From IMG/VR virus record IMGVR_UViG_3300045988_187372: a DNA stretch of 64,000 nucleotides, one strand, 5' to 3'. Origin of the DNA: a virus. Under the pieces are notes generated by a model. That model searched no databases. It saw only the letters and a list, made by a program, of their open reading frames with translations, and was not told the origin of the DNA. Below, piece after piece: positions 1,388 through 62,706 of the stretch (its first letter is position 1; each line of letters starts with the position of its first letter). A program made the position numbers and the translations under genes.

Positions 1388-1403
1388 TTATATGACAGAA
1401 AAT
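1388..1403 (-). promoter_or_regulatory. conserved promoter motif (gene-sense TTTTCTGTCATAT[A/T])
   Basis: + strand reads TATATGACAGAAAATT ~35 nt upstream of start of 915..1352; -10-like CATATAAT in gene sense. Confidence 0.6.
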
Positions 1404-1526
1404 TAAATAAATTATTTGACATAAAATATTTGTTTTTAATATCTTTTTTAATGGTTCTTGTATTTATTTTTGCCATTTAATTATATACAATGCCAACAAT
1501 ATTTATAGTATTAAAATGTATCAGAA

Positions 1527-1553
1527 AAGCCGGCTACAAAAGTAACCGGCTTA
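1527..1553 (-). terminator. intrinsic terminator
   Basis: AAGCCGGTTACTTTTGTAGCCGGCTT followed by TTTCTGAT on minus strand. Confidence 0.55.
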
Positions 1554-1567
1554 AAGATATTTATATT

Positions 1568-1867
1568 TTATTTTAATCCTGCATTATTAAATGCATCTGA
1601 ATCACATTTTACACCACTAGCTTTTAAAGCACTGGATAAGCTACTTTTAGTTGTATATGTAGTTCCTTTATATATTACGCTTGTTAAATTAGTACATTTA
1701 TTAAATGCATACATACTTATGGCTTTTACACTATCTGGTATTGTTATTTCTGTTAATCCTGTGCAATTACTAAATCCTGTTATTTTTGTTAAACCAATAC
1801 AATTATTAATGCCTACAATTTATGTTAAATTTGTACAATTTTCGAAAGTATCAGAATTTTTTATCAT
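1568..1867 (-). pseudogene. BspA-type leucine-rich-repeat protein fragment interrupted by in-frame TAA (at 1820-1822)
   Basis: Translation MIKNSDTFENCTNLT*IVGINNCIGLTKITGFSNCTGLTEITIPDSVKAISMYAFNKCTNLTSVIYKG...; classic F.nC..Lt.i.ip LRR periodicity continues across the stop; RBS AGGAAACAAAAAATG; terminator hairpin at 1527-1553. Confidence 0.5.
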
Positions 1868-2027
1868 TTTTTGTTTCCTTTCTTATTTTTTGATTTTATT
1901 AATAACTAATAATTTGCTGGGAATTACATAAAAACCCTCTTGGTTTTCCATAAAATTATAAAAACAATACTCATTATTGTTATTATAATTAAATATAAAA
2001 CTGCTTCCTGAATTAAAAGAAGTTTCA

Positions 2028-2432
2028 TTACTTGCTTGAAGTTTTGTTCCATCCGGTAATGTATATGTAGTTATTTTGATATTCCCACATGTCAAATTCA
2101 GCATTTTCTCCATATTTTTCTTTTACTTCTTGATTAATAGTTTCAGGGTCTGTAGGACCATCATAAGAAATTGATTCAGTATTGATTGTTACCGGTAATG
2201 TATTGGCATTTAATAAAGCTTCAGCTTCTTCTTCACTGTTTATAACTATTTTGTCATATTCTTTGTTATCAATATAAGTCTGATTATTGTTTGAAACAGT
2301 ACTTTCCTCTGTAACTATATTAATTGGTTGTACACTATTATTAAATAATCCACATCCTGATAACAACAGACAAATTGCCGGAAAACAAAAAAACATTTTT
2401 TTGCTTCTTTTTAATAATTGTATTTTACTCAT
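2028..2432 (-). CDS. lipoprotein
   Basis: signal peptide with lipobox LLSGC; promoter motif 2468-2483. Confidence 0.5.
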   Translation of the reverse strand: MSKIQLLKRSKKMFFCFPAICLLLSGCGLFNNSVQPINIVTEESTVSNNNQTYIDNKEYDKIVINSEEEAEALLNANTLPVTINTESISYDGPTDPETINQEVKEKYGENAEFDMWEYQNNYIYITGWNKTSSK

Positions 2433-2467
2433 TTTTATTTCCTTTCTTGTTTATATTTTTCATTTAT

Positions 2468-2483
2468 TAATATGACAGAATAA
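2468..2483 (-). promoter_or_regulatory. conserved promoter motif
   Basis: AATATGACAGAATAAA upstream of 2028..2432. Confidence 0.55.
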
Positions 2484-2734
2484 AAAAATATTTAAATTTT
2501 TTATTCAGAAATTTAAATTGTTAAAGTTAATATGGCAGAATTTTAAATTAAATTTTTGACATAAAAAGCATATATTATTAAGTGTGTATATTTTCAAGTA
2601 ATATCAGTAATCTTGCCGAAGCTTTAAGTTACTAATCTATGGTTTGATGGGAAATCCATATGTAAAAAAATAAGCATATGATCTGATATCCAAACAGAAG
2701 TATCTGAATGTCAGAGAAAAACATAAAATACCCT

Positions 2735-2790
2735 GTTAACATTAAGAGCTATACATGTGTTTAGCAGTTTAATGTAACAGGGTATGGATT
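2735..2790. other. 14-bp inverted repeat in GC-richer gene-free region 2476-2951
   Basis: CCCTGTTAACATTAA ...23 nt... TTAATGTAACAGGG. Confidence 0.3.
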
Positions 2791-2951
2791 CCGTCATCTT
2801 CTATACAAGAATCAGATTGTATTTAGTTTTAATGTGGTATGTCAGGATGTAAATTCTAAAGTGCAAATTTAATACTATATAAGATAGCGGATCAAGTTAT
2901 ACTGAGTACAAGGTATAAGTGAATCTTCAAAGGTTTAGCTTCTTAATACAT

Positions 2952-3473
2952 TCAATATATATATTTTATAGGAACATACAAAATTATATTTAATGTATTT
3001 TTGTCATAAGTTAAATCAAAGTTATCTGATTCAGAATATTTTATTTCACTTAAAGGTAACTTATATTCAGAATATATGCTGCTATTTTTTTTTAAATAAA
3101 CAAGTTCTGTAAAATCTGATTGAAAATATACTTCTTTATTCATGTCTATTTCTTGAATAACCTTTTTTAAAGCTATTATTTTATCCCAATATTCTGAATT
3201 TTTAATACCTATAACTATGGAATCAATGTCTTTACTGATACATATAAATAAGCTTAAATATATAAAAACACTAAAACCTATTAATGTAATTATTGAAATA
3301 AATGTAAGTTTTATAATCAAACTTATAATACTTAAAATAAAACATATAAGAATACCTGCTAAAACAATTTTAGTTATTCGTTTTTTTAATAAAGATTTAT
3401 TGATATTTTCATCAGTCGCATTATCAAAATTAATATTCAAATATTCGTTATGTGTTTTTAATTTTAAATTCAT
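2952..3473 (-). CDS. membrane protein
   Basis: 173 aa with central hydrophobic segment. Confidence 0.45.
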   Translation of the reverse strand: MNLKLKTHNEYLNINFDNATDENINKSLLKKRITKIVLAGILICFILSIISLIIKLTFISIITLIGFSVFIYLSLFICISKDIDSIVIGIKNSEYWDKIIALKKVIQEIDMNKEVYFQSDFTELVYLKKNSSIYSEYKLPLSEIKYSESDNFDLTYDKNTLNIILYVPIKYIY

Positions 3474-6206: not shown

Positions 6207-7073
6207 CTATACTCTTAGCCAAAATATCTTTAATGCCATTTGAATTTCTTCAGGAGTAAATTCATTGTATTTACATATCAACAGAATATGTGCTGTAACA
6301 GGAACAATGTATAAATTTGTTTTCAGTTCCTCTGAAATATTTTTAAGCAAATTATTGTTCAGAATTGCACTTGTATTATAAAAGTCGATTACATTTTGAA
6401 TTACATATATTCCTTTAATACATTTGCTCTCAAACCCACCAGAATTACTTAGAAAAGATAATTCTTTCTTTGTCTTTTCATAATTATCATCATCTGCCAG
6501 TTGCGTCAAAAAATAATCACCTAATACACTGATAAAATATTTGTTGGAATATATTGAATGAATTGCAAGATTGTACAATTCGTTTTCATCAATTTTCAGT
6601 ATGTCCCTCATATAGTTATTATCAATTACAAACATTGTACCTTCTGAATTTTCTTTAGGTATGATCACATTATAAATTATTTCGAACTCATAAAATGGCC
6701 TATGAGGAATGCCGTTTAAATCTTCCATATTGTCCGGCTTTTGTATTAATTGAGGCATAATATAGTGTTTTATATCATTTGAATTAATTTCTGGAGCTAA
6801 ATTATTAAGTTTATATTCACTACCATTAGAATTTTTGTTTCTATAAAATGCTTCAGATATTGACAATGCAATTTCTTTTATTGACGAATTATTTAAATAT
6901 TGTTTATATAATTGATTTAATTTAAATTCTAAGGGACGCATAAACTGATTTTTAGAATGAAAAATAAGCTTATATGATGTGTAAACTATATCTGTTGGTG
7001 TAATATCTTCAATATTTTGAAGTAATTCGAATTTAAGATGTTTAAGAAAATCTTCGTAATTCATTTTTTGCAT
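6207..7073 (-). CDS. hypothetical protein
   Basis: 288-aa ORF; promoter motif 7108-7123. Confidence 0.55.
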   Translation of the reverse strand: MQKMNYEDFLKHLKFELLQNIEDITPTDIVYTSYKLIFHSKNQFMRPLEFKLNQLYKQYLNNSSIKEIALSISEAFYRNKNSNGSEYKLNNLAPEINSNDIKHYIMPQLIQKPDNMEDLNGIPHRPFYEFEIIYNVIIPKENSEGTMFVIDNNYMRDILKIDENELYNLAIHSIYSNKYFISVLGDYFLTQLADDDNYEKTKKELSFLSNSGGFESKCIKGIYVIQNVIDFYNTSAILNNNLLKNISEELKTNLYIVPVTAHILLICKYNEFTPEEIQMALKIFWLRV

Positions 7074-7107: not shown

Positions 7108-7123
7108 AATATGACAGAAAAAA
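7108..7123 (-). promoter_or_regulatory. conserved promoter motif
   Basis: AATATGACAGAAAAAA upstream of 6207..7073. Confidence 0.6.
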
Positions 7124-8352: not shown

Positions 8353-9381
8353 TTACATAAAAGATTGTATACTATATCCTTTCCGTCTGAAACGAACTCT
8401 AATCTTTTTTATTGCTTTTGATTCAATCTGTCTGATTCGTTCTCTGGAAACATTCCATTCAGTACCTATATCTTTTAAAGTTTTAACCTTTGAACCATAT
8501 CCCATTCTACTCTTAATTACATATAATTCTCTAGGAGTGAGACAATCTTCAACTTCTTTCCAAAGCAGTTCATTCATTTCTTTTTGAATAATCGTATCTT
8601 CAACTTTAGGTTCAGGAGCTTCTATATAATCAGCCAAACACGAATCGTCATGGCCTTCGTCACTTTGAATAGGTGCATCTAATGAAACCAATTCATTAAA
8701 GCTCTGAATATGTACAAGCATTTCTTTAGTTAAAAGAGGATATCTTTGTTTTACTACATCATATAATTCATCAATTGTAGGTTTTCTTTGAAGTTTATTA
8801 GTTAAATCCACAAATGTAGTCTTAACAAAAGAATCCTGTTCTCTTACATGTACAGGGAATCTAACTAATAAATCATAATTGGCTAATTCTCTATATATAC
8901 TCTGTCTAATCCAATGAGTTGCATAAGTTGAAAATGCATATCCTAATTTATAATCAAACATTTGTATAGCTCTGTATAACCCGAAAATACCGGCCTGACA
9001 TAAATCATCCATTTCAAAACTTTGCGTTTTAGCTGTAACAGCTTTAGCAATACTGATGACTAAACGCATATTAGATAAAATCAATTTTTCAGTTATTTCT
9101 TTTTTCTTTTTAGGATGTTTTTTTATCTCTTCAAATAATTTAAGAGTTTCATCTTTGGATAAAACCGGATAATCAGCGAATGATTTAATATAATAAGTTA
9201 TATTATTTTCTAATAATAGTTTCTCTTTTTCATTTAAAATCTCTTTATCATTTAAAATATCGGTATAATTATCCTCTGATAAAATATTTATGTTTTCTAC
9301 TGATTTATTTGTGTCAAATAATTCATCAACATATTCATCTTTATTGTTTTTTTTATTTAATAATAAATTCTTATCTGCCAT
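8353..9381 (-). CDS. sigma-70 family RNA polymerase sigma factor
   Basis: Region 2 'DLCQAGIFGLYRAIQMFDYKLGYAFSTYATHWIRQSI' and region 4 HTH 'LKDIGTEWNVSRERIRQIESKAIKKIR'. Confidence 0.8.
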   Translation of the reverse strand: MADKNLLLNKKNNKDEYVDELFDTNKSVENINILSEDNYTDILNDKEILNEKEKLLLENNITYYIKSFADYPVLSKDETLKLFEEIKKHPKKKKEITEKLILSNMRLVISIAKAVTAKTQSFEMDDLCQAGIFGLYRAIQMFDYKLGYAFSTYATHWIRQSIYRELANYDLLVRFPVHVREQDSFVKTTFVDLTNKLQRKPTIDELYDVVKQRYPLLTKEMLVHIQSFNELVSLDAPIQSDEGHDDSCLADYIEAPEPKVEDTIIQKEMNELLWKEVEDCLTPRELYVIKSRMGYGSKVKTLKDIGTEWNVSRERIRQIESKAIKKIRVRFRRKGYSIQSFM

Positions 9382-9393: not shown

Positions 9394-9789
9394 TTAACAT
9401 TGATGTCCTAGCATTTTTAATTCATTATTTGCTTCTATTTTCATTGTACATATTCTACTAATTGCATTATATGTAAATTTAGATTGCTCTTCAAAGGTTC
9501 CTAATATATCTCGTTTAATCATAAGCTCTTTACATTTATCTGAAGACTCTTTGTGTAATTTCATTTCTTTTACCATTGAATCTAAAATAGAATGCATTGA
9601 GGAAAAATAGGTAAAATAATTTCCTACTTCACTCAATAAATTTCCTATTTCCAATAAATCTATTTCATCTGATCTAGGAATTTCTTTCTTAAAATTAATT
9701 AAATACCATTCATATAAATCCGTTGAAGAAGCTTCAAGGATATCACTTATAGACTTATTTTTTAATTCATTATTCATATTTGTTTCCAT
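9394..9789 (-). CDS. hypothetical protein
   Basis: 131-aa ORF with RBS AAGGAG; translationally coupled to neighbours. Confidence 0.5.
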   Translation of the reverse strand: METNMNNELKNKSISDILEASSTDLYEWYLINFKKEIPRSDEIDLLEIGNLLSEVGNYFTYFSSMHSILDSMVKEMKLHKESSDKCKELMIKRDILGTFEEQSKFTYNAISRICTMKIEANNELKMLGHQC

Positions 9790-9792: not shown

Positions 9793-10704
9793 TTATTGCT
9801 CCTTAATTTCTATATTGATATTTTCAAAACACTTAATTACAAAATAAATTAAACTCATTATGCAGACTATTAAAATGCATACCTGTAAATATATATTTGT
9901 TATAAAAAACGTAAATGGTATTAATGCCACACAGTTTATTAGAATATGATATAAGCTGCTAAGTTTAATACCATATTTATCTCTTACAGCACCTAACAAA
10001 TATCCGCCAAAAGCATATATAGGGAATAAAATAAAATTAAAATGAATTATTCCAAATAAAACTGCTTGGATTATATTTGCACATAATTTATTGTTGCTTG
10101 CTTTATATGCATAGCCATAAATTATATATCTAAAAGTCAATTCCTCAATAATAGGTGCCACAAAAGTTGCTATTATTGTAGATATAATTGTTTTTATTCC
10201 TAAACTTCCATAATCAATATCTGATACATTTACAAAATGCATTTGGATTCCTGAAATAAGCTGCAATATTACAGAAATTAATATGAAACAAAATACAAAA
10301 TTCCAATTTACTACTAATTTATTTTTCATAAACAAATCTTTTTTATAATTGTAAAATGAGCTTTTTATACAAATAATGCACATAACAAACATTAATGTAT
10401 ATGTTGATATTGTGTAAATTAATCGAAATCCTTCATAATCTATTTTAGTTGAAATTCCTCCTGCATCATTCATATACATATTTAATAGACTGTCTATAAA
10501 TGTTGCAATAAACATTGAAAATAAAATTATAAAAACAGAAATAATAAATGGAATAAAAATCTTTATATACTGTTTTGATTTTGAAAAGAAAGAATTACTT
10601 TTCATTTTGTTTTTTGCCATAAAATCCATATAAGAATTTAAATCATGCTTATTTTTTTTATTTCTTAATTCCTTAATATTACTGTTATTGTTACTAAGTA
10701 TCAT
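9793..10704 (-). CDS. CPBP-family (CAAX/Abi) intramembrane metalloprotease
   Basis: polytopic membrane protein with EELTFR and FGIIHF motifs. Confidence 0.7.
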   Translation of the reverse strand: MILSNNNSNIKELRNKKNKHDLNSYMDFMAKNKMKSNSFFSKSKQYIKIFIPFIISVFIILFSMFIATFIDSLLNMYMNDAGGISTKIDYEGFRLIYTISTYTLMFVMCIICIKSSFYNYKKDLFMKNKLVVNWNFVFCFILISVILQLISGIQMHFVNVSDIDYGSLGIKTIISTIIATFVAPIIEELTFRYIIYGYAYKASNNKLCANIIQAVLFGIIHFNFILFPIYAFGGYLLGAVRDKYGIKLSSLYHILINCVALIPFTFFITNIYLQVCILIVCIMSLIYFVIKCFENINIEIKEQ

Positions 10705-10732: not shown

Positions 10733-10746
10733 ATATGACAGATACA
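10733..10746 (-). promoter_or_regulatory. conserved promoter motif
   Basis: ATATGACAGATACA upstream of 9793..10704. Confidence 0.55.
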
Positions 10747-12537: not shown

Positions 12538-12553
12538 TTATGACAGAAAATTA
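12538..12553 (-). promoter_or_regulatory. conserved promoter motif
   Basis: TTTATGACAGAAAATT upstream of DnaE C-fragment. Confidence 0.6.
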
Positions 12554-16057: not shown

Positions 16058-16092
16058 AATTTTATTCTCCTTTTTAAATTTTATAATAATAC

Positions 16093-51045: not shown

Positions 51046-51060
51046 TTGAATGACAGAAAT
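51046..51060 (-). promoter_or_regulatory. conserved promoter motif
   Basis: TTGAATGACAGAAAT upstream of 50797..51012 / Lar operon. Confidence 0.5.
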
Positions 51061-51742: not shown

Positions 51743-51857
51743 AATATCTGTTTAACTCCTTAAATTAAAATCTTAATTAATAAATATATGACAGTTTAAA
51801 AAAATATTTTTCGAAAAACAATATAAAAAACAGCCATCAAATGATGACTGTTTTTGC

Positions 51858-52606: not shown

Positions 52607-52894
52607 TTAATCTGGATTATATGGATATTCTATAAAGAATTCATATTCCGGATTGTCGCTCATTAAGCGGGCAATATTTTCTGCTTTGGATACATAATAT
52701 GTATGTCTGTTATCCAACCCATCCTTTTCATTAAGCATTTCGCACTTAGCTCGTGTAACAATCTTATGAAACTGATTACCAGATAAATCTACAATTATTT
52801 CGTTATCTCTATAGAAATAATCAATATTTTTTCTTTCAAGAATTTTGTTAATATAAGGAATTAATTCTTCTTTTGCCTTCTTAAAATGTCTCAT
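52607..52894 (-). CDS. hypothetical protein
   Basis: probable start MRHFKKAKE at 52894 with RBS AAGGGAG; promoter 52945-52962 inside longer track ORF. Confidence 0.45.
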   Translation of the reverse strand: MRHFKKAKEELIPYINKILERKNIDYFYRDNEIIVDLSGNQFHKIVTRAKCEMLNEKDGLDNRHTYYVSKAENIARLMSDNPEYEFFIEYPYNPD

Positions 52895-52944: not shown

Positions 52945-52962
52945 AATATATGACAGAAAAAA
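52945..52962 (-). promoter_or_regulatory. conserved promoter motif
   Basis: AATATATGACAGAAAAAA upstream of 52607..52894. Confidence 0.55.
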
Positions 52963-52979: not shown

Positions 52980-55313
52980 TTATCCAAACTGTTGTCTTTT
53001 TATTAAAATATTATTATATATTTCATCCCAGTATTTATTTATAGCATCAATTTCTTGTTGATCAGTTAATGCGTTCTTATCGATAATAACATCATCAAGA
53101 CTTTTTATAACAGTATTAGCAGTTTTATAATCTGAAATATTAGTATTCTCAGCTTCTTTTAAAGCATCATATGCTTTTTTGTAACAAAAACTGGCATTTT
53201 CATAATTAGGAAAATCGATTTGGAAAAAATCTTTTTTACCAGAATTATAATTACATTTTTTTCCTTCCCAGTCAATATAATGCTCATAAATAGTTTCAGG
53301 TTTCTCAAATTCCTTATTATCTAAATTCTGGTGCAAATATTCATTAAACTGCTTCCATATTTCTCCACATATTGCTGAACCATTATCAAAATTTTTAGGA
53401 ATATCATATCCGGTCCATATACATGTTGTGTAATATGGTGTATATGCACATAGCCAAGAGTCCTTGTTATCATTCGTTGTTCCAGTTTTTCCTGCACAAA
53501 TCTGATTATCTATTTGATAATTTTTGACGTATCCTTCTGTAAAATTTGAAATTAAACAATCTGTCATCATATAAGCGGTGCCTTTTTTATATACTTGAAT
53601 ATCTTCTTTATTTTGATATATTTCTTCATTTTGACGCAACATATGTTTGATGCATGTATTATTATTGTATTTACCATTATTAGCTAATGCATTGTATGCT
53701 TTAGTCATGTTTTCTACTGTTACACCATTTGTAAAACCACCTATGGCAATTGCAGCATTATTATTATCTTCATATGAAATATTATAAAAGTGCATTTTAT
53801 TTAAATACTCTAAACAATTATTTATTCCAACATTCATTAATGTTTTAACAGCCGTTGTATTGACTGATTGTAATAAAGCTGTTCTTACTGAAATATTGCC
53901 TCTGTAATATCCATCATGATTTTTAGGCTGATATTTACCCTCAAGTGGAGAATCCAAAATCATAGATGATGGATGATAGTCTAAAATATCAAAAGCCGGA
54001 GCATAATCTAATATTGGTTTAATGGAAGAGCCTGGTTGTCTAGGAGATTGATATGCTCTATTTATATATTCATTATCTTCTTGTCCACCTATAATTGCTC
54101 TAACATATCCAGTTTCATTATCAATACACATGGATGATGTTTGAAGAAGATGCCGCCCATCCTCGGATAAGCTGTTATCATATTGTGATAAAACATTTTT
54201 TGAAATTTGTAATAGCTCAAGCTGCTTATCTTTATCTATTGAAGTATATATCCTGTATCCTCCAGTTAATATTTCTTCTTTGTACTTAGAGTATATTTTA
54301 TTATATTGATTAATATAATCTTGCTCATCTTCTGAAGAATCAAAAAGGTATTTAAAATTAAATCTATTTATTTCCATAAGATATTCAATAGAACATTTAA
54401 GTGTATATGAAAATTCATAAGATGTTGGTAAATCAGATGTTTCTTTATATAAAATTAAATCAAGAGGATCTTCTAATGCTTCATTGTATTGTTTTTCTGT
54501 AATTATTTTCTGATTATACATTGTATTAAGGACTTGATTTCTTTTACATATTGCTAATTCATAATTTGTTTCAGGATTATATTTTGTAGGGGCATTTGAA
54601 ATACCTATTAACATTGCGGCCTGAGATATTGTTACATCAGATGCATCACATCCAAAATAATATTTACAAGCTGCCTGAATTCCGTAACAATTGCTGCCAT
54701 AGAAATTAGAGTTTAAATACATTTCAAGTATTTGTTCTTTAGAATATGATTTTTCCATTTCAAGTGATGCTATTATTTCAGTAAGTTTTCTATCTATTGT
54801 TTTGTTTGAATTTTTTATAACAATATTTTTTACAACTTGTTGTGTGATTGTACTGCCGCCCTGAGTTATTTTCCCTTTATTCTTTATATAAGCCAAAGAA
54901 GCTCGTAACAATGCTTTAGCATCAATACCTTTATGAATATAGAAATTCTTATCTTCCACAGCAATATATCCTTGTATTATATAATCACTGACATCGCTGA
55001 TATTAACATATTCATAAGAGCCGTTAATATTAGCTGCCATTAATGTACCGTCATCATAATAAAAGTATGTATTCAGTTCTTTATTAAATTCATCTTGGTT
55101 CATATTTTGTAATGACTCATACGCATTCTCCTGTGCCAATTTGAATTTACTATAAAATTTGATATAAAATACTGATAATGATATTAAAGATAATAATATG
55201 ACTATCATAATAATCAATATAAAAATTTTAAATATGGTTAAAAGATGATTTTTCTGTTTTTTTAGTGGAATATTTTTATCATCATTATAAAGTGGTTGTT
55301 TTTTAGAACTCAT
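52980..55313 (-). CDS. class A penicillin-binding protein (glycosyltransferase + transpeptidase)
   Basis: N-terminal TM anchor; GT51 motifs [12 protein letters not shown] and GGSTITQQ; transpeptidase SxxK (PGSSIKP), SVN, KTGTT. Confidence 0.85.
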
Positions 55314-55344: not shown

Positions 55345-55360
55345 AAATATGACAGAGAAT
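55345..55360 (-). promoter_or_regulatory. conserved promoter motif
   Basis: AAATATGACAGAGAAT upstream of PBP gene. Confidence 0.6.
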
Positions 55361-55391: not shown

Positions 55392-55577
55392 TATAATCAA
55401 AGTTGCTAGTAGAATTGTAAAATTCTATTAAAGTGTATTTTACGACAAAATTACCGGCTTTAACAAAAGTGCTAGTCTTTGAGGAGGCATATATGTATGC
55501 CTAATATGTACCGACAATATTTTATCACATTGTAAATTATAATACAATATTGATTTAATCATTATATGACAGATTTT
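55385..55577 (-). ncRNA. candidate small RNA unit between two promoter motifs
   Basis: promoter motif 55563-55577, hairpin AGGCATATATGTATGCCT, terminator 55369-55391, then second promoter 55345-55360 for PBP gene; only a 16-codon ORF without RBS. Confidence 0.35.
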
Positions 55578-55590: not shown

Positions 55591-56724
55591 TTACATAATT
55601 TTATTTTTGCCTGTTCTTTTAGCTTTATACAAATTTTTATCTGCTGCATCAAATAAATCGTGAACGGTATTATTTTTCTTATATTCTGTTATTCCTCCAG
55701 AGAAAGTAAATTGCTGCGGAATATTCTCATATTTAATATTGTTGAATTTAATTCTGATATCGTTAATTATATTATACGCCTCAGTATATTCATAATCTGC
55801 AAATAATATTCCGAATTCTTCGCCTCCATATCTGGCGACAAAAATATTTGATTGGTTAATATTTTGAAGTTCCTTAGCTAAATTAATTAAAACAGTATTT
55901 CCAAATTCATGTCCATATGTATCGTTAACTGATTTAAAATCATCTATATCTATTATACAAAAATAAAGTTTTTTCTTATATGATATCCATTTCTTTGTTG
56001 TATTAAAAAGAGACATATAATTATCTAATCGAGTTAATCCATCTTGTGAAATTTCTTTTAGTAATTGTGCATTTCTATTTTCAGATAAAACCAGTTTAAG
56101 TTCTTTTTCTTTCTCATATTTAATAACAAGTCTCGAATAAATATATGCAAATATTGTTATGATACATGATAAAAACATATATATTAAATAATTTGATGGT
56201 AACTTATTTAATTCAGAGATTGATGATAATGAAATTGTAATAATTTCAAATTGACTTATCAAAAATAATTGCCAATTAACCTTGTTACTACCATATACAA
56301 TACACATAAAAATTGGGCAGGCTATTAATGTATATAATACCGGATAATTATAATGAATGATAATTGAAACCACTATAATTAAAGTTAAAATATACAAAGG
56401 CATGGCTTCATATATTTCTGGTTTAATATTATCTTGATATTTTCTTATAATATGTCTACCGGTAAACCATATTATTAAATTAGATGTAGTAGGTATAAAT
56501 ACATTCAATATAATATAAGATAATATATTTATTGTTTGTTTTTCTATTATTATATGTATTGGTATAAATAATAATTCAAAAACAAATATTGTGATTATTA
56601 TAAGAAGGTTAATAGCCATTATTTTATTTTGAAATTTATTATACAAATATGCATATAAACTGGTTTGTTTTTCTGTATGCTCTATTGTATTATCTTGTAT
56701 TTTAATTTTTTCTATTGTTTTCAT
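55591..56724 (-). CDS. membrane-anchored GGDEF diguanylate cyclase
   Basis: multi-TM N-terminus; DIDDFKSVNDTYGH...RYGGEEFGILFAD. Confidence 0.85.
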   Translation of the reverse strand: MKTIEKIKIQDNTIEHTEKQTSLYAYLYNKFQNKIMAINLLIIITIFVFELLFIPIHIIIEKQTINILSYIILNVFIPTTSNLIIWFTGRHIIRKYQDNIKPEIYEAMPLYILTLIIVVSIIIHYNYPVLYTLIACPIFMCIVYGSNKVNWQLFLISQFEIITISLSSISELNKLPSNYLIYMFLSCIITIFAYIYSRLVIKYEKEKELKLVLSENRNAQLLKEISQDGLTRLDNYMSLFNTTKKWISYKKKLYFCIIDIDDFKSVNDTYGHEFGNTVLINLAKELQNINQSNIFVARYGGEEFGILFADYEYTEAYNIINDIRIKFNNIKYENIPQQFTFSGGITEYKKNNTVHDLFDAADKNLYKAKRTGKNKIM

Positions 56725-56865: not shown

Positions 56866-58080
56866 TTACTCTGTTGCATCATAAAATTCTTTCTCCGGAT
56901 ACAATTCATTCAAATTTTCTGCTAAATCAATTTCTTCAAGTAAAGCATTATAATTCATTTTGATTTTTTCAGATTTAATTAAACTTAACATAGCATCTGC
57001 AATTACAGGATCAAATTGAGTACTTTTACCTTTTTCAAGCTCATTGATTACAATTATTGAATCTAAATGTTTTCTATATACTCTGTCACTTGTCATTGCG
57101 TCAAAGGCATCTGCCACAGAAATAATCCTTGCAATATAAGGTATTTGTTCTCCCTTTAAGCCATCTGGGTATCCTTTTCCGTCATATCTTTCATGATGAT
57201 ATTTTGCTCCTAAATCAATGTCCTTAAGCATTGACATATCTTTTAAGATATTTCCGCCTATTACTGTGTGGTTCTTCATTACTTGGTACTCTTCATTTGT
57301 TAATTTTCCTGGTTTGTTTAATATGCTATCCGGAATTCCTAGTTTTCCTATATCATGCAATAGTGCTATTGAATGAATATCTTCAATCTCATTTTTATTC
57401 ATTCCTAATTTATATGCTAATAAGGCTGTATAATCTGCTACTCTGGTTGAATGGCCTTTGGTGTAATTATCTCTGGCATCGATAATATTTGCTATAGTTG
57501 TAACTGTTTGGAGAGACATTTTATTAATTTGTTCTATTTGATTTATTATTGTTTGTGTATTTTGCAAATTTAGGTCTGTATTTCTTTTATAAAACTTTGA
57601 AACAATATATGCTGCAGCAAAGCATAAAATAATTATTGCAAGTTGTATCTCCATGTCTTTGCCACCTGATTTATCAATTTTATTATATGTTTTAATAAAT
57701 ATTGCCGTAATATTCAACACTGTCGAAAATAAACCGGTTACTATAATTAAAGTTGGATCATAATATAAAATTAAAAGCAGGATAATTGGGAATATATAAG
57801 TAAAACATAAAACAGTATTTCCTGTAAATAAGGTAAATGTATACATTATTAAAAACGAGAATGTTACAAAATATTTTAAAAATAGCCAGTTTTTATTATA
57901 AATAAAAACCAACCACCCTGTTAAATTCGGGATACTAATTAATATAGCAAATATTGCAAAATATGGTGGTGATATAGCATGTTTTAACATTTCACCAAAA
58001 TAAATGCCTAATAGTGTTATTGTTATTACTGACCAACCACATAAAAGTGATGTATTTAATCTTTCTTGTTCTCTATCCAT
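56866..58080 (-). CDS. membrane-anchored HD-GYP phosphodiesterase
   Basis: multi-TM N-terminus; HSTRVA...LLHDIGK...HHERYDGKGYPDGL. Confidence 0.85.
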   Translation of the reverse strand: MDREQERLNTSLLCGWSVITITLLGIYFGEMLKHAISPPYFAIFAILISIPNLTGWLVFIYNKNWLFLKYFVTFSFLIMYTFTLFTGNTVLCFTYIFPIILLLILYYDPTLIIVTGLFSTVLNITAIFIKTYNKIDKSGGKDMEIQLAIIILCFAAAYIVSKFYKRNTDLNLQNTQTIINQIEQINKMSLQTVTTIANIIDARDNYTKGHSTRVADYTALLAYKLGMNKNEIEDIHSIALLHDIGKLGIPDSILNKPGKLTNEEYQVMKNHTVIGGNILKDMSMLKDIDLGAKYHHERYDGKGYPDGLKGEQIPYIARIISVADAFDAMTSDRVYRKHLDSIIVINELEKGKSTQFDPVIADAMLSLIKSEKIKMNYNALLEEIDLAENLNELYPEKEFYDATE

Positions 58081-58116: not shown

Positions 58117-58133
58117 TATATATGACAGATAAT
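58117..58133 (-). promoter_or_regulatory. conserved promoter motif
   Basis: TATATATGACAGATAAT upstream of HD-GYP gene; no motif between HD-GYP and GGDEF genes (operon). Confidence 0.6.
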
Positions 58134-58141: not shown

Positions 58142-58252
58142 AAGAGTTCAACGTGACTAAGTAAGATCATGCTTACCGTTACCGCTGAACCCTTTTTATA
58201 AAAATATAATTAGCTCCTTTATTTTTAGCTAATAATAATATGACAGAATTAA
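58142..58252 (-). ncRNA. candidate small RNA unit: promoter - ~50-nt imperfect hairpin - T-run
   Basis: promoter motif 58236-58252; long hairpin 58142-58193 (AGAGTTCAACG...CGCTGAACCCT with inner GTAAG/CTTAC) flanked by A-run and T-run; next promoter 58117-58133 drives HD-GYP gene. Confidence 0.35.
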
Positions 58253-58297: not shown

Positions 58298-58441
58298 TTA
58301 TTTATTAATTTTTTTCTGATGTAAATTATTTATAAAAGTGATTGCCTCAGGAGGCAATGGAGAAAATCTATATACTTTTTTCATTTCTTCTTCGCAGCAT
58401 ATACCTGCTCTTTTTAATTCATATATATTTTTCTTTTTCAT
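58298..58441 (-). CDS. small protein (47 aa, not in ORF track)
   Basis: MKKKNIYELKRAGICCEEEMKKVYRFSPLPPEAITFINNLHQKKINK; strong RBS AAGGAGG; terminator 58262-58288. Confidence 0.4.
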   Translation of the reverse strand: MKKKNIYELKRAGICCEEEMKKVYRFSPLPPEAITFINNLHQKKINK

Positions 58442-58453: not shown

Positions 58454-59740
58454 TTACTGAGCTGCTGTAAATTCAACAAAATATTCTATAGTACTTTGCT
58501 GATCCTGATATACAATAATTTCATCATTACATAAACTATGGCCCGCATGAGCAAAAGTACAATGAGCGCCAGGACATCTCTGTTGTAAAACATTATAAGT
58601 TAAATCACTTTCAGCAGATGTTACATCATATGTTTTACCAGTAGCCACTTTGAAAATGCCTAAATATCCAATTGCTTCACTACCATGAGTCCAATAAGAA
58701 CCGGAGCTTGAAGTATATCCCATCGATTTTTTTGCCTTATTAGCAAAATATGTACCTAATCCAAACATCTTTCCATTAGTTACAACTCCAACTGGATTTA
58801 TTGTTAAACCATTAGTTATAATGGACCAGAAGTTTTCTGATCTTGAACCATGAAATAAATGAGATATTCCATTATTTTCATCACTTAAATTTTCTTTAGC
58901 ACAATATTCATTGAAAGCCTTTTCGGTCTTTTTATTAATGATTCTCCAAGCATTTTTATATTGCTTTGCATTTTCTCCCATAAGCTTCTTGATTTTAGTC
59001 TCTTCTTCGTCAGATACAGGTCTCCATTCAAGTCCATAGGCCTGAAGAACTGTTGGCATAGTGTCATATTTAGCTAAATTACTATTAGATCTTACCTGAG
59101 AATACACAATATCAAACAGTTCCTGCTCTTTGTCAATGATATCAACAAATTCAATCTTTCTTTTAGCCAAATGTTTAGATAAATTATCCATTCTTCTAGG
59201 AATTGCAGCATATAATACTTTTAATTTATTATTAAACTCTGCAATTGACATAGAATCATGGTTCTTAGCTAATTCAATCAAAATCGAATTACCATATTCA
59301 AGCATCTCATCTGAAATATCTTCAACTGAAGTTGAATAATTATCTGAAATAACCTTATTAGCGTATGAAAGCAGTTTTGTTATAATAGAATCAACAGAGA
59401 AAATTCCAGTCTGTGCATATGTACCGCCATTAAAACTTAAACCTTTTTTTGTAATCTTTTTTTTCTCCATTTTTTGAGTCTTTGTAAGCAACCAACCTCT
59501 ATTTACCTTAGACAAATAAAAAGAATCCCAATTAGTCATAGGAAGTGAATATGTCCTTGGCCTGTTCCTTCCTATCCTGATTCCAATTCTACCTTCAGTA
59601 ACATCAAAAACATTCTTATTATTGGCATTAACCTGCATAATAATCTGTTGATTATTACCTTTACCTGTAGCTGTTTCTGCAACATAATTAAGTTCCAAAT
59701 ATTCATGATTTGGTATTGTATTTATATCTGCCTGTTTCAT
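58454..59740 (-). CDS. PARP-like ADP-ribosyltransferase (WGR-like N-term + catalytic domain)
   Basis: LFHGSRSENFWSIITNGL...GKMFGLGTYFA...NDEIIVY parallels PARP1 LLWHGSRTTNFAGILSQGL...GYMFGKGIYFA...YNEYIVY (H-Y-E triad present). Confidence 0.8.
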   Translation of the reverse strand: MKQADINTIPNHEYLELNYVAETATGKGNNQQIIMQVNANNKNVFDVTEGRIGIRIGRNRPRTYSLPMTNWDSFYLSKVNRGWLLTKTQKMEKKKITKKGLSFNGGTYAQTGIFSVDSIITKLLSYANKVISDNYSTSVEDISDEMLEYGNSILIELAKNHDSMSIAEFNNKLKVLYAAIPRRMDNLSKHLAKRKIEFVDIIDKEQELFDIVYSQVRSNSNLAKYDTMPTVLQAYGLEWRPVSDEEETKIKKLMGENAKQYKNAWRIINKKTEKAFNEYCAKENLSDENNGISHLFHGSRSENFWSIITNGLTINPVGVVTNGKMFGLGTYFANKAKKSMGYTSSSGSYWTHGSEAIGYLGIFKVATGKTYDVTSAESDLTYNVLQQRCPGAHCTFAHAGHSLCNDEIIVYQDQQSTIEYFVEFTAAQ

Positions 59741-59756: not shown

Positions 59757-59957
59757 TTACGCAATTTTATCTTTAAATTTTTCGAAAGCTTCTTTTGTAA
59801 ATTGTGTATACATCCCAGAATCATTTCTTACTGATACGAAATCGCCAAATGCTATACATTCATATGTATGCCCTTTTGTCCAGCATCCATAGAATGATTC
59901 ATTAGTATCAGATAAAGTTTTATTTGCCTGCACATTAAAAACAATATGTTCTATCAT
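59757..59957 (-). CDS. hypothetical protein
   Basis: 66-aa ORF first in operon with PARP; promoter variant ATATGTCAGAAAAAT 59993-60009. Confidence 0.45.
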   Translation of the reverse strand: MIEHIVFNVQANKTLSDTNESFYGCWTKGHTYECIAFGDFVSVRNDSGMYTQFTKEAFEKFKDKIA

Positions 59958-60083
59958 TTTGAATACGCCTCCTTTAATTAATTGATGTAATATATATGTC
60001 AGAAAAATAAAATTGGATATAAATTTGTAAATTCATTTTATATATAGTATATTATTAAATATTGTAAAATTAAGGAGAGTAAA

Positions 60084-60482
60084 ATGAATATGAACAAACT
60101 TAATATTTTTTCAATTGAATTTGGAAATGGAAAAATGTTTTTTGTTGGAAAGAATGAGTCTATCAAATATATAAAAAATCATTTTAATTGGAAAGATACT
60201 CATAACGATGTGGTTAATATAAATGTAATGACCGATTTAGCAATAAAAAACAATGTATTTGTTAATATAATGCCTAATAATATTAAGGATAAATTATATG
60301 CAAAATTATTTATTATTTCTAAACTAAAGAAACATAAATTATGGATGTCTTTTGATCAATATTTAGCTGTTATGTGTTTTACGGAAAACGGTAAAAAAGA
60401 AATAAAAATGTTATTGAATATGTCTGATGATGACATAGATTTAATCTGTAAAAATTCAGAATGGAATAAAATTTTAAAATAA
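60084..60482 (+). CDS. hypothetical protein
   Basis: 132 aa; RBS TTAAGGAGAGTAAAATG; bidirectional terminator 60487-60530. Confidence 0.55.
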   Translation: MNMNKLNIFSIEFGNGKMFFVGKNESIKYIKNHFNWKDTHNDVVNINVMTDLAIKNNVFVNIMPNNIKDKLYAKLFIISKLKKHKLWMSFDQYLAVMCFTENGKKEIKMLLNMSDDDIDLICKNSEWNKILK

Positions 60483-60534: not shown

Positions 60535-60593
60535 CTGAACTACTCACAACCAACTATTGTTGGATGGAGTTTTTTGCTTAATTGCGATAATTA
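60535..60593. repeat. 60-nt conserved structured repeat, copy 6
   Basis: CTGAACTACTCACAACCAACTATTGTTGGATGGAGTTTTTTGCTTAATTGCGATAAT; CCAAC/GTTGG compensatory stem. Confidence 0.7.
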
Positions 60594-61310
60594 TTATTTT
60601 GTTGAAGTAGTTACTTTTATATTTGGTTTATCAATTGTAATATCCATCCTATCAGAATCGTTTAGTTTTTTTGCCATTTCGTCTTTAACCATTTTTATAT
60701 TTTGTTCTAAATCAGGCATTTCAGTAGATTCAGTAACTATATCTATATTATTTGAATCATTATTTTTTTCTTCTGGTTTATCAGCTAAACAATTATTTAA
60801 TTCATTAATATATTGCCTTTTTTTGAATTCCTGCAATTCTAATAATATTTTGTTTTTTAATTCCTTATTAGCAATATAAAATTTGTATTTATCAAGTGCT
60901 TCATAATTAAGTTTTGCTGCAGGTTTATGTTTTATAATACCTGTTACTGTTAAACCATCAAATGTTTCTTTAATATGGTCAATTTGTTCAACTTTATAAT
61001 CTGTCATTTTGTCAATTCCAGGTACAAAATAGCTAAAATCAATATATTCATTATATATTTCAAATCTAGCCTGAGGGTACCAATTAATAACATTTTTAAG
61101 AATCAAAAAGCATAATAAATTTGAACCCGCAATTATTCCGCTGGCAATTACACCTGCAAAATTTTCTGTTCCGTAAAAAATAATTTCGCAAACAAGTCCA
61201 CCTATAATAAGTGCAAGATTAAAAATAATAATAAGAGAATGAACTGGCCTGATATCCGGTAGTCTACTCAACATATTATATGAATTAATTGGGTTATTTT
61301 TATTGTTCAT
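60594..61310 (-). CDS. membrane protein
   Basis: 238 aa with two TM helices; promoter 61393-61406. Confidence 0.55.
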   Translation of the reverse strand: MNNKNNPINSYNMLSRLPDIRPVHSLIIIFNLALIIGGLVCEIIFYGTENFAGVIASGIIAGSNLLCFLILKNVINWYPQARFEIYNEYIDFSYFVPGIDKMTDYKVEQIDHIKETFDGLTVTGIIKHKPAAKLNYEALDKYKFYIANKELKNKILLELQEFKKRQYINELNNCLADKPEEKNNDSNNIDIVTESTEMPDLEQNIKMVKDEMAKKLNDSDRMDITIDKPNIKVTTSTK

Positions 61311-61392
61311 AAATTACTACCTTGTTGCTATATTAGCAACTTCCTTTCTAAAATAATATTGAAGTTTTTATTACACAAAACATCTAAAAATA

Positions 61393-61406
61393 ATATGACA
61401 GACATA
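61393..61406 (-). promoter_or_regulatory. conserved promoter motif (minus) of a divergent pair
   Basis: AATATGACAGACAT upstream of 60594..61310; mirrored + motif 61414-61428. Confidence 0.55.
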
Positions 61407-61413
61407 AAAAATA

Positions 61414-61572
61414 AAATCTGTCATATATATAAATAGCGTTTTATTAAAGGAGGAAATGTTATGTAGTTTTTTTGATTAAAAATTAATTTAGTATTGTAGA
61501 TTCAAAGACGGGTGAATTTGCAATAATTAAACATAAAAAAGGTTGAGCTTTATTGCCCAACCTTTTTTTTCT
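61414..61572 (+). ncRNA. plus-strand mini transcription unit with start-stop micro-ORF
   Basis: + oriented promoter motif AAATCTGTCATATAT 61414-61428, strong RBS AAAGGAGGA, ATG-TAG (61461-61466) at optimal spacing (or 7-codon ORF from 61456), terminator hairpin + T8 at ~61538-61572. Confidence 0.35.
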
Positions 61573-61763
61573 TAAGCTGTTATACAGCCTGTTATATGAG
61601 AATCATTAATATTGATTCTAATATTATTGTCTTCCAATTCCTTCGCTAAATCGAAAATGGAAAGCATTTCCAGATATTCTAAATATGAAATCATTTGTTT
61701 TCTTCCCTTAAGTAACATATCAACATACTCACTTGTACTCATATATACTTTCTCCTTTTCATT

Positions 61764-62633
61764 TTACATATCAAAGTTTCTGGTTATTCTTGCCGTTCTA
61801 AGGATAATGTCCTTTGTATTCTGATCAAGATTTTCTGCATTAATAATAACTGCTGTCTTATCATTGCTAAGCTTCATTTCTGGAGTAATCTTAGCATACA
61901 TTAATGTGGCTTCAAGACCGCCTATAACTGTATCTGCATTTTTATTAGCAGAAATCTTTAATACCATTTCAGAATCATCTGAACTATCATTAGGTGTTAC
62001 TGGAACCGAGGATTCTGATTCTGATGATTCTTCTACTGGGTCAACATTTACTGCGTCTGATACATCAGTATTTGAATTATTGTAAACAGCTTCAGATACA
62101 TCTTCATTTTCACTTGAAACTAATTCATCATCGACCTGTTCATTATATTCTGGGACCTCTGTAATAACTGCTGTACTTTCTGATACCTGTGAATCATTAT
62201 TTGCTTCTTCATTAATAGGTTCATTAATGGTATCAACAATAGTGTCAGCAACAGAATCATTAGAAGTATCATCCTGATTCCAAGGCAATTCCTTTTCATC
62301 TAAAACTGGTTCTTCAACCATTTCAGTTATTTCTGATTCAGCAATTTTAGAAGAAATTTCTTCTTTTTCTGCATTAATATCTTCAAGTGTTGGGGCGATT
62401 TCCTTTGCAACAACAGGAGCTTCTACATCTAAAACTGACTCCTTTGTATTTGCTCCAACATTATTAATTAATAATGCTGCCATTAGATTCTTTATTTCTT
62501 CAATTTTTGTATTTGGAATAACAATATGTACTCCATTGCCCTCTTCAAAAAGGCTTATTGTCTGCATATTCATACTATATATGCTCCTTTCATTTTTTAT
62601 TACTAAATAATGTATGACAGAAAAAAAAATCAA
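61764..62633 (-). CDS. acidic, low-complexity (D/E/S/V-rich) protein
   Basis: 289 aa; promoter 62612-62630. Confidence 0.55.
   Translation of the reverse strand: MIFFSVIHYLVIKNERSIYSMNMQTISLFEEGNGVHIVIPNTKIEEIKNLMAALLINNVGANTKESVLDVEAPVVAKEIAPTLEDINAEKEEISSKIAESEITEMVEEPVLDEKELPWNQDDTSNDSVADTIVDTINEPINEEANNDSQVSESTAVITEVPEYNEQVDDELVSSENEDVSEAVYNNSNTDVSDAVNVDPVEESSESESSVPVTPNDSSDDSEMVLKISANKNADTVIGGLEATLMYAKITPEMKLSNDKTAVIINAENLDQNTKDIILRTARITRNFDM
62612..62630 (-). promoter_or_regulatory. conserved promoter motif
   Basis: GTATGACAGAAAAAAAAAT upstream of 61764..62633. Confidence 0.55.
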
Positions 62634-62665
62634 ACTGCAAAATTAATAAAAAAATAAATTAATTA

Positions 62666-62685
62666 TAAGTGTATATATACACTTT
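62666..62685. promoter_or_regulatory. perfect 20-bp palindrome between divergent promoters (candidate operator)
   Basis: TAAGTGTATATATACACTTA located between minus motif 62612-62630 and plus motif 62692-62706. Confidence 0.45.
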
Positions 62686-62691
62686 ATTATT

Positions 62692-62706
62692 TTTTCTGTC
62701 ATATCT
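62692..62706 (+). promoter_or_regulatory. conserved promoter motif in + orientation
   Basis: TTTTTCTGTCATATC ~35 nt upstream of relaxase start 62740. Confidence 0.55.

Follow-up and report, generated by a model that had tools for sequence, protein, structure and literature searches.

A recurrent putative promoter motif and an RpoD-like sigma factor on a probable giant plasmid-like element of human-gut Clostridia

The IMG/VR virus record IMGVR_UViG_3300045988_187372 comprises a 64,000-nucleotide (nt) stretch of DNA (hereafter referred to as the window), in which a short motif, TTTTT-CTGTCAT-at, recurs between genes and in which a sigma-70-family factor is encoded. Two questions are raised by this locus, namely what the motif does and which factor reads it. 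An earlier note, made from the sequence alone, had described the motif as a promoter element placed before almost every transcription unit and had named the encoded sigma factor as the obvious candidate for its reader. According to the analysis reported here, the motif is very probably a promoter; that it is read mainly by the element's own sigma factor, in the register given below, is on balance the favoured interpretation of the sequence.

Distribution and anatomy of the motif

The motif is present in the window far above chance. Indeed, with at most one mismatch, the 14-base signal TTTTTCTGTCATAT has 22 matches for 0.18 expected and the 10-mer TCTGTCATAT has 61 matches for 9.8 expected. A weight matrix built from 36 exact CTGTCATA sites returned 45 matches with a score of at least 12. 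Forty of these are intergenic, intergenic DNA representing 10.8 kb (17%) of the window; four lie antisense inside genes, three of them being weak, and a single one is in sense orientation in a coding sequence, where it occupies the final codons of the upstream gene and the next start codon follows after 43 nt. The motif is thus not equally common in coding sequence of the same orientation. As it is kept out of coding sequence and tied to gene orientation, a Chi, uptake or methylation site was rejected. Three weaker, well-placed copies (2530, 27978 and 39678) were added to the matrix matches by inspection. In promoter position, 44 copies of TCTGTCATAT with at most one mismatch were counted (42 on the minus strand and two on the plus strand), the first at 1390-1399 and the last at 62695-62704, all co-oriented with the downstream gene (Table 1). 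The earlier claim of more than 40 copies preceding nearly every transcription unit is borne out by this count, and the copies named individually (24684, 27980, 33465, 51783, 55563, 58236, 59993, 61414 and 62692) were all found within a few bases. In most units, a start codon preceded by a strong AGGAGG-type Shine-Dalgarno site follows the C of CTGTCAT at a distance of 37-49 nt, i.e. 28-40 nt separate the end of the motif from the start, in agreement with the 30-45 nt reported previously; in about ten units the leader is longer, at 62-459 nt. An exact TCTGTCATAT at 40569-40578 (plus strand), antisense within the RecJ-like gene and without T-run, was also observed (about 0.2 expected on that strand) and may represent either chance or an antisense promoter.

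The motif also occurs with the same layout in four further lineages, about 21 kb of each relative having been seen: L014 (sigma factor 51% and RecA 85% identical), L039 (DnaE C-terminal part 67% identical; motif in 6/6 upstream regions), L034 (RecA 80% identical; 15 motif copies in 21 kb) and L040 (DnaE C-terminal part 57% identical). A relaxed form, TCWGWCAT, is found in ten promoters within 21 kb of L036 (65%). In L037 and L038 (53% and 48%), a T-run is followed by CATATT, and often then by TATAAT, without the TCTG part. In unrelated loci encoding other sigma factors, the motif is absent or present as chance copies only.

Several lines of evidence point to a promoter. Indeed (i) a terminator-like hairpin is found at most 60 nt upstream of 26 of the 45 matrix matches, against 13% of random positions, and terminator-like sites are themselves three times enriched (17 for 5.1 expected in a 20-kb scan), the motif lying directly after most of them; between the end of a terminator T-run and the motif there are 2-19 nt, too few for another promoter, (ii) the copies at 61393-61402/61417-61426 and 62612-62621/62695-62704 form divergent back-to-back pairs exactly at switches of the coding strand, so that transcripts must originate there, (iii) a T/purine signature is located at the distance expected for a start site, and (iv) in the related lineages, conservation between genes is confined to the motif and the ribosome-binding site, and in orthologous spacers of a sister lineage the terminators differ in sequence and retain their hairpins. 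Taken together, the placement, the divergent pairs, the T/purine signal and the spacer conservation exclude, for practical purposes, a processing site, a repeat of DNA metabolism and chance.

In such a layout, most genes or short operons would form insulated cassettes composed of a promoter, the gene or genes and an intrinsic terminator, with the next promoter starting within a few bases of the preceding terminator T-run. The motif had been said usually to abut a terminator, which holds for about 60% of the matches. Three genes thought to be co-transcribed with their upstream neighbour, namely the GGDEF gene after the HD-GYP gene, the PARP gene after 59757..59957 and 15273..15479 after 15599..16057, have no upstream motif of their own, consistent with that view. 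The two plus-strand copies were likewise found, but they do not account for all plus-strand units: a third one (60084..60482) lacks the motif, and the copy at 61417 drives no gene. A TTGTAA-N17-TATATT sequence is present upstream of this third gene (60025-60482, plus strand) and may be a host-type promoter on the element. The region 61417-61570 (plus strand) would yield a transcript of about 130 nt with a perfect ribosome-binding site, then an ATG-TAG start-stop and a bidirectional terminator; its product is predicted to be a small RNA or a minimal open reading frame (ORF) at the divergent promoter pair.

A logo was compiled from 62 distinct promoter-position copies of three lineages, collected with a seed of TGTCAT that had to be followed by a ribosome-binding site and a start codon, and numbered with the first C of CTGTCAT as -16. 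The seed fixes T-15, G-14, T-13, C-12, A-11 and T-10. Around it, a T-run extends from about -22 to -18, T-17 is found in 56/62 copies, C-16 in 60/62, A-9 in 51/62 and T-8 in 50/62, and position -7 is A in 37/62 and T in 20/62; a poorly conserved AT-rich stretch (-7 to -2) then leads to T at -1 (46/62) and a purine at +1 (54/62). The conserved block is TTTTT-CTGTCAT-at, with T then a purine six bases later. One-mismatch promoter-position copies vary at -17, -16, -15, -13, -9 and -8, T-15 varying solely in lineage L036; G-14, C-12, A-11 and T-10 never vary among those of the strict-motif lineages. CATATWAT, previously taken as the conserved part, has to be replaced by the T-run plus TCTGTCAT(a)(t), the bases after CATAT being merely AT-rich.

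No conserved -35 hexamer and no signal at -35 to -30 were found in the window or in the three-lineage logo, and TTGACA-N17-TATAAT sites are not enriched (127 for 137 expected in shuffled sequence); a canonical -35 element was consequently rejected. The extended -10 subclass of promoters does not need a -35 hexamer, and a TG one base upstream of the hexamer is present here (TCTG-T-CATAT). With G at -14, C-12, A-11, T-10 and +1 at a purine, the motif would fit an extended -10-type promoter without -35 element. The description of the motif as an extended -10 element was therefore right in spirit and wrong in register, the TG-like part being the G of TCTG and the hexamer CATATw, and the start is predicted to lie about 2 nt before its earlier placement. 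Two L040 promoters read TTTTTCTTATATATT, with a canonical TATATT exactly at -12 to -7 of the proposed register, which supports a -10 hexamer at that place. The statistics of the motif, its placement, its conservation between lineages and the substitutions in the sigma factor are direct observations, from which we infer the start site, the register and which sigma factor reads the motif.

A second element, TTATGTAAAA (consensus YRTGTRAARA), is located exactly 24 nt upstream of TCTGTC in 10 of the 44 copies (class II), i.e. at -42 to -33 in the preferred register, 21 bp from the hexamer. In class II promoters, the stretch beside the core is A-rich and not T-rich. They stand in front of recA, the sigma operon, the UvrD-like and flotillin-like genes and a few unknown genes. 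Among the relatives, L034 also has the element before recA and uvrD, and L014 and L040 have it before the sigma operon. Upstream of 2952..3473 there is an eleventh TTATGTAAAA-type copy, with TACAAT at the hexamer position in place of the core. The class II element may be a second, degenerate copy of the core, forming a tandem promoter. Compared with the general consensus sequences, a Spo0A box, a CRP half-site and a LexA box were rejected, position 5 being A and not G; a palindromic partner is also missing and the location is wrong.

Table 1. Promoter-position copies of the motif and the sigma factor gene of the window. Core, TCTGTCATAT; class II, copies with the YRTGTRAARA-type element 24 nt upstream.
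Positions	Strand	Feature	Predicted downstream unit or context
1390..1399	-	core TCTGTCATAT, class II (TTATGTCAAA 24 nt upstream)	915..1352 (YqeY-like)
2470..2479	-	core TCTGTCATAT, class I	2028..2432
2530..2539	-	variant TCTGCCATAT, class II	tandem, 60 nt upstream of 2470 copy
7109..7118	-	core, class II	6207..7073 (DUF5688)
8353..9381	-	sigma-70-family gene, 342 aa, RpoD-like, candidate motif reader	Pfam regions 2 and 4
10733..10742	-	core, class II	CPBP protease 9793..10704, 9394..9789, sigma 8353..9381
12538..12547	-	variant TCTGTCATAA, after terminator	DnaE C-terminal part 10817..12502
13513..13522	-	variant TCTGTCATTT, after terminator	12894..13475, 12589..12894
14925..14934	-	variant TCTGTCATAA, after terminator	5'-3' exonuclease 14012..14893
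16092..16101	-	variant TCTGTCATTG, after terminator	15599..16057, and 15273..15479 past RNA element
18155..18164	-	core, after terminator	17881..18117, 17221..17853, 16142..17131
20805..20814	-	variant TCTGTCATGT, after terminator	DnaE N-terminal part 18222..20771
22072..22081	-	core	20883..22034
23257..23266	-	core	22167..23216
24684..24693	-	core, class II	long leader with small ORFs, then 24209..24376
25532..25541	-	core, after terminator	25348..25497, 24758..25321
26807..26816	-	core, within final codons of 26786..27652	methyltransferase-like 25876..26772
27978..27987	-	variant TCCGTCATAT, after bidirectional terminator	27649..27939, 26786..27652
31010..31019	-	core	helicase 28056..30977
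32907..32916	-	core, class II	138-nt leader with RNA element, then flotillin-like 31203..32777
33456..33465	-	variant TCAGTCATAT	32995..33420
34773..34782	-	core	34466..34738, primase-like 33531..34469
34987..34996	-	variant TTTGTCATAT	short unit: RNA element and terminator
35462..35471	-	core, after terminator	35002..35424
38512..38521	-	core	459-nt structured leader ending in terminator, then 35527..38061
39678..39687	-	variant ACTGTCATAT, class II	recA 38545..39639
40257..40266	-	variant GCTGTCATAT	39730..40221
42143..42152	-	variant TCTGTCATTA	RecJ-like 40352..42106
42635..42644	-	core	42212..42598
44806..44815	-	variant TCTGTCATAA, class II (TTGTGTAAGA)	43005..44771
46914..46923	-	core, class II (TTATGTAAGA)	114-nt leader with RNA element, then UvrD-like 44883..46808
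47738..47747	-	core, after terminator	46961..47704
49818..49827	-	core, after terminator	48436..49755, 47793..48413
51048..51057	-	variant TCTGTCATTC	50797..51012, 50272..50784, 49882..50241
51786..51795	-	variant ACTGTCATAT	51128..51742
52948..52957	-	core	52607..52894
55347..55356	-	core, after terminator	class A penicillin-binding protein 52980..55313
55564..55573	-	core, class II	about 200-nt unit without long ORF, upstream of 55347 copy
58120..58129	-	core	HD-GYP 56866..58080, and GGDEF 55591..56724 (without own motif)
58238..58247	-	core, after terminator	about 110-nt short unit upstream of 58120 copy
59994..60003	-	variant TCTGACATAT	59757..59957, PARP-like 58454..59740, 58298..58441
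61393..61402	-	core, divergent partner of 61417 copy	60594..61310
61417..61426	+	core	about 130-nt RNA (Shine-Dalgarno site and ATG-TAG), end at bidirectional terminator 61541..61570
62612..62621	-	variant TCTGTCATAC, divergent partner of 62695 copy	61764..62573, 61572..61742
62695..62704	+	core	Mob_Pre relaxase 62740..63945

Candidate readers of the motif

The sigma factor encoded in the window is a genuine member of the sigma-70 family. Pfam domains Sigma70_r2 and r4 were found, residues 93-330 align with solved primary sigma factors, and database searches gave RpoD/SigA proteins as best matches, at 35-40% identity, those that are named being from Clostridia; with NCBIfam, the protein is below all RpoD cut-offs (179 vs 354 bits) and passes the superfamily model (97 vs 42.9 bits). 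Its region 2.4, FSTYATHWIRQSIYR, carries W433H and T440Y (E. coli numbering), the canonical WWIRQ[AS]ITR being present in 107 of the 120 best homologues; Q437, H455, E458 and the RERIRQ of region 4.2 are retained. Orthologues beside the motif are encoded in L014 (N433/I440) and L040 (42% identity; H433/R440), so that sigma factor and motif co-occur in three lineages at the sites seen. According to PMC2613000, no substitutions in E. coli sigma-70 other than Q437H and T440I are known to suppress a change from T:A to C:G at -12, and G-14 of the TG motif is read by H455/E458. The invariant C-12 and G-14, the altered -12 readers and the intact TG readers give a coherent picture.

The sigma gene is part of an operon with genes for a CPBP (Rce1-like) intramembrane protease and a 125-131-aa protein, which is conserved in three lineages (window 8353-10742, minus strand; L014:8674-11035; L040:1891-3997) and driven by the motif in the window. 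The 125-131-aa protein has no Pfam or NCBIfam family and a single weak PHROG match of unknown function. In L036, L037 and L038, the last two genes of the operon are replaced by one coding for a membrane-anchored protein of about 300 aa. This operon may be a protease/anti-sigma/sigma module.

In the favoured mechanism, TTTTT-CTGTCAT-at would be the standard promoter of a family of giant plasmid-like elements of human-gut Clostridia, namely one of the extended -10 type that does not depend on a -35 element and is used by bacterial core RNA polymerase with a sigma-70-family factor. T-17 C-16 T-15 G-14 T-13 would occupy the '-16/TG' region contacted by sigma region 3.0, C-12 A-11 T-10 a-9 t-8 w-7 would be the -10 hexamer, and transcription would start at the conserved purine 6 nt past -7, giving leaders of 26-33 nt into a strong Shine-Dalgarno site. 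The likeliest reader would be the RpoD-derived sigma factor 8353..9381, devoid of the T-12-reading residues (W433H, T440Y) and still equipped with the TG-reading H455/E458. As the sigma operon is driven by the motif, positive autoregulation would be implied, and the first round of expression could come from leaky recognition by host SigA. A wider proposal is tentative: an orthogonal transcription system in which a sigma factor rewired at -12 directs the host core enzyme to well over 100 insulated cassettes on an element of at least 250 kb, in which replication, repair, envelope and transfer genes are largely uncoupled from host SigA, and in which the class II element and a new structured leader RNA, found before terminators or weakly translated genes, form a second layer of control and the CPBP operon a switch based on regulated proteolysis.

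Several points weigh against this mechanism, and the encoded sigma factor is a plausible reader of the motif. The sigma operon itself stands behind the motif, so that host SigA or a carry-over sigma factor must read it at least weakly, once. Residue 440 differs (Y, I, R) among the three sigma factors found beside the same motif, which rules out a simple one-to-one correspondence between residue and base. Although the RERIRQ of region 4.2 is retained, a conserved -35 element is missing at 17 +/- 1 bp, and A is more frequent than T at -7 (37/62 against 20/62), a position at which T is nearly invariant in sigma-70-type -10 elements. The syntenic site of L036 encodes a membrane protein and no sigma factor, yet the relaxed motif is there; L037 and L038, with their T-run plus CATATT(TATAAT) promoters, have no sigma factor at this site either. 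Finally, the inventory of sigma factors and polymerases covers 84 kb, and the element runs at least 180 kb beyond the window.

Some of these observations are shared with the most serious alternative, which we consider unlikely: the host housekeeping SigA would read the motif as an unusual TG-type extended -10 promoter, and the sigma factor of the element would have a different or narrower regulon or act in addition. The position of the sigma operon behind the motif, the TCWGWCAT of L036 and the CATATT/TATAAT-like signals of L037 and L038, which SigA could read, all agree with it, as do the T-N-T-G-N-hexamer arrangement and invariant A-11/T-10, which recall TRTG '-16 region' promoters, and the plain TTGTAA-N17-TATATT before one plus-strand gene, which indicates that host-type promoters may work on the element. 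However, C-12 is invariant, and wild-type primary sigma factors prefer T there and need T440I or Q437H to accept C; selection also maintains the 14-nt consensus in a far more uniform state than is usual for housekeeping promoters, and a sigma factor with altered -12 determinants has been kept beside the motif in three diverged lineages.

It is improbable that TCTGTCATAT is the site of an activator, a sigma appropriator or a repressor encoded by the element, with a weak TATAAT-like -10 lying 1-6 nt downstream and a start about 7 nt further downstream than in the favoured mechanism. A weak T-w-T-A-A-T trend does exist at -6 to -1 (first T in 38/62, last T in 46/62), and the CATAT-T-TATAAT of L037 and L038 places a canonical hexamer exactly there. 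The A at the would-be -11, however, is found in only 28/62 copies, against 62/62 for the A of CAT (fixed by the seed, and also invariant among one-mismatch copies), the hexamer in the TTTTTCTTATATATT of L040 coincides with CATAT and not with the downstream site, and no candidate DNA-binding factor was identified.

Very improbable, furthermore, is a reader located elsewhere on the element, either an extracytoplasmic function (ECF) sigma factor or a phage-type RNA polymerase. The -10 of E. coli sigma-E is TGTCAAA, and the ECF layout is TGTAAC-N17-CGTC. TGTCAT resembles the former and class II TGTAAA-N17-CTGTC recalls the latter, and at least 180 kb of the element lie outside the examined part. 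Yet ECF sigma factors normally need a -35 element, and although GTC is present, three quarters of the promoters have no -35-like element; no gene for an ECF sigma factor or a single-subunit polymerase is present in the window and 20 kb of flanking sequence (84 kb in all), and the stretch from -7 to +1 is not conserved (-7 to -2 in particular), unlike in T7-type promoters. An action in RNA, as a processing site or an element of the 5' untranslated region of read-through transcripts, can be dismissed as extremely improbable: the motif is always on the sense strand between genes and adjoins hairpins, much as T7 RNase III sites do, but the divergent pairs have no upstream transcription to process, the hairpins carry the T-runs of intrinsic terminators and the motif is not within a conserved structure.

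The element and its other features

The window has a G+C content of 24-33% and a GC skew that is negative up to about 60 kb and changes sign over the final 4 kb; with few exceptions, the genes lie on the minus strand. They include genes for replication and repair (a split DnaE, RecA, a RecJ-like protein, UvrD-like and other helicases, a 5'-3' exonuclease), for the envelope (a class A penicillin-binding protein and a flotillin-like protein), and for GGDEF, HD-GYP and PARP-like proteins, two CPBP proteases, a Mob_Pre relaxase and the sigma-70-family protein. A type IV coupling protein and a 1288-aa protein are encoded just beyond the window edges, and in the more distant relatives L037 and L038, Rep_3 and ParA adjoin the DnaE C-terminal gene. 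Whole-window scans found no tRNA and, at curated thresholds, no Rfam family.

The identical sigma protein is encoded in 81 blocks of the metagenome collection, on contigs of 190-422 kb among those read, and the contigs returned are human-gut metagenome assemblies; a near-identical RecA is found on contigs of up to 760 kb. The nearest bacterial RecA proteins are from Lachnospiraceae (73-75% identity), and a DnaE fragment is also present in one NCBI metagenome-assembled genome labelled Lachnospira pectinoschiza. No close relative of the sigma factor was found among GTDB species representatives, so the element is not a prophage of such a genome. Protein searches of PLSDB and INPHARED gave no sigma match closer than about 40%, a nucleotide search of phage records gave a 4.4-kb faecal fragment as sole match, and scans of IMG/VR with the bipartite pattern and a sigma profile gave only two contigs of the same element and one distant sigma factor. 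The element is probably a giant, plasmid-like, conjugative extrachromosomal element of human-gut Clostridia.

An RNA-like element of about 65 nt (TTATCGMAA..AGCAAGAAAACTCCAYCCGACAATAGTCGGTTGTGAGTAGTTCA), consisting of a bulged stem-loop with strongly conserved unpaired flanks, occurs on the minus strand of the window at 15505-15575, 17148-17218, 32805-32875, 34880-34945, 46835-46905 and 60529-60598, and elsewhere at L030:11705-11775, L014:6202-6270 and 6387-6447, L034:7226-7288 and 7408-7468, and L035:4840-4905, with tandem pairs in relatives. Four copies lie 33-50 nt before starts with weak ribosome-binding sites and two directly precede a terminator; compensatory changes are seen (9 double-change cells vs 2.7 in shuffles). 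It is a candidate for a new cis-regulatory or antitermination RNA. The 459-nt leader or non-coding RNA at 38062-38505 (minus strand) folds far better than shuffles (z = -6.0) and contains three copies of CAUCCUACUUUU and a strong terminator about 60 nt before an 844-aa gene that has no promoter of its own. Permissive Rfam scans of leaders gave chance-level matches only, and neither the RNA-like element nor the 459-nt leader had an Rfam match.

Other features were noted. DnaE is split into an N-terminal PHP/polymerase gene (18222..20771) and a C-terminal finger/HhH/OB gene (10817..12502), both on the minus strand, about 5.7 kb apart and each with its own promoter; in L014 and some strains, an HNH endonuclease gene divides the N-terminal part a second time, and stand-alone DnaE C-terminal fragments form a large family according to homology search. 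At 55591-59740 (minus strand), GGDEF and HD-GYP genes, for making and breaking cyclic di-GMP, stand side by side with the gene of a PARP-like ADP-ribosyltransferase, and the HD-GYP/GGDEF spacer contains a hairpin without T-run. Insertions encoding an HNH/RRXRR endonuclease and an IS605-type TnpB (Cas12f-like) are found in strain variants of the element (L012:13523-14782 and 20274-21029, and L013:18669-19775), in the region matching window positions 1-7000. A gene-free stretch of 1.28 kb downstream of the sigma gene (7074-8352) is present in all contigs of the element, and gene-free gaps of about 1 kb occur at the matching relative position in L036, L037 and L038. As about five iteron-like copies of CTATATATTGTTA are located in it (7263-7530) and relatives encode Rep_3, it may be a replication origin.

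Related systems and significance

In terms of sequence, the nearest class is that of the TRTG-type extended -10 ('-16 region', TRTG-n-TATAAT) SigA promoters of Gram-positive bacteria, with which the motif shares the T-N-T-G-N-hexamer arrangement, the invariant A/T at hexamer positions 2/3, an activity that would not need a -35 element and a purine start signal 6 nt after the hexamer. It differs from them by C instead of a purine at -16, by an invariant C at -12 and W at -7, where they have T, and by its T-run at -22 to -18, and it is far more uniform in sequence than housekeeping promoters. The -10 of the sporulation promoters of SigE, SigK and SigG begins with CATA. The motif shares this beginning, in spore-forming Clostridia, but its candidate sigma factor is RpoD-like and not SigE/K-like, the TCTGT prefix is conserved and there is no cognate -35. 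The nearest mechanistic precedent is the E. coli sigma-70 Q437H/T440I (PMC2613000), in which the change at residue 440 goes with acceptance of C:G at -12, and the sister-element sigma factor of L014 has exactly T440I. Unlike these mutants, the natural sigma factors of the elements also replace W433 (by H or N) and have Y (window) or R (L040) at 440, with a specificity that is a prediction from sequence.

In function, the motif and its candidate sigma factor come closest to two groups, the sigma factors of phages and those of plasmids, such as SigN of pBS32. Phage sigma factors with private promoter sets include SPO1 gp28 and gp33/34, and T4 gp55 with its late promoters TATAAATA. As in these phages, a mobile element encodes a sigma-family protein and one non-host consensus stands before most genes, and, as in T4 late promoters, a -10-type element occurs alone. 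Unlike SPO1 and T4, the element resembles a conjugative plasmid, its sigma factor is a full-length RpoD derivative (regions 2, 3 and 4), and there is no evidence here for temporal classes or a co-activator of the sliding-clamp type. Plasmid-borne sigma factors are represented by SigN of Bacillus subtilis pBS32 and the TcdR/UviA group on clostridial plasmids; they share with the present case a sigma-70-family gene on a large Firmicute plasmid, autoregulated from its cognate promoter. They control a handful of genes (cell death, toxins, bacteriocins), whereas here genes for replication, repair, the cell envelope, signalling and transfer all have the motif in front of them. A search of the literature on plasmid or phage sigma promoter motifs yielded nothing relevant, and a literature search with the motif sequence returned primers only. 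The arrangement of promoter and sigma factor is a new example of a known strategy, not a new kind of biology.

The recognition of giant, uncultivated extrachromosomal elements in gut Firmicutes is very recent and, to our knowledge, no account of their expression exists. The element is similar in kind to the 'Hodor' conjugative megaplasmids (PMC12934698) and to 'Inocle' (PMC12340149), which are AT-rich, hundreds of kb long, uncultivated and human-associated; the Rep_3/ParA of relatives and the type IV coupling protein of the element also recall them, a likeness based on descriptions. Inocles are reported to encode DNA polymerase III, RecJ and a sigma factor annotated as RpoS, and are oral and rare in faeces (PMC12340149). 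Hodor elements (211-389 kb) encode Rep_3, ParA/ParB/ParM, a sortase and secretion module, two giant surface proteins, a type IV secretion system and a MOBH relaxase (PMC12934698). By comparison with this description, the relaxase here is Mob_Pre and sortases were not seen, while the coupling protein and the 1288-aa protein are present. The word 'promoter' is absent from the main text of both papers (PMC12934698 and PMC12340149), and 'sigma' from that of PMC12934698.

In summary, the finding opens a way to study how a little-explored class of gut elements is expressed. One sharply defined promoter would allow operon maps to be drawn for giant gut elements, and the motif can serve as a tag with which further fragments of the family can be retrieved from metagenomes, as it separated the family from unrelated loci here. 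It also offers a concrete, testable candidate for a sigma/promoter pair with a natural T440/W433 change in specificity. If dependence on the sigma factor is true, this pair could be used as an orthogonal expression part for genetically intractable Clostridia, and plasmids, and not phages alone, would be able to privatise the host RNA polymerase on a genome-wide scale.

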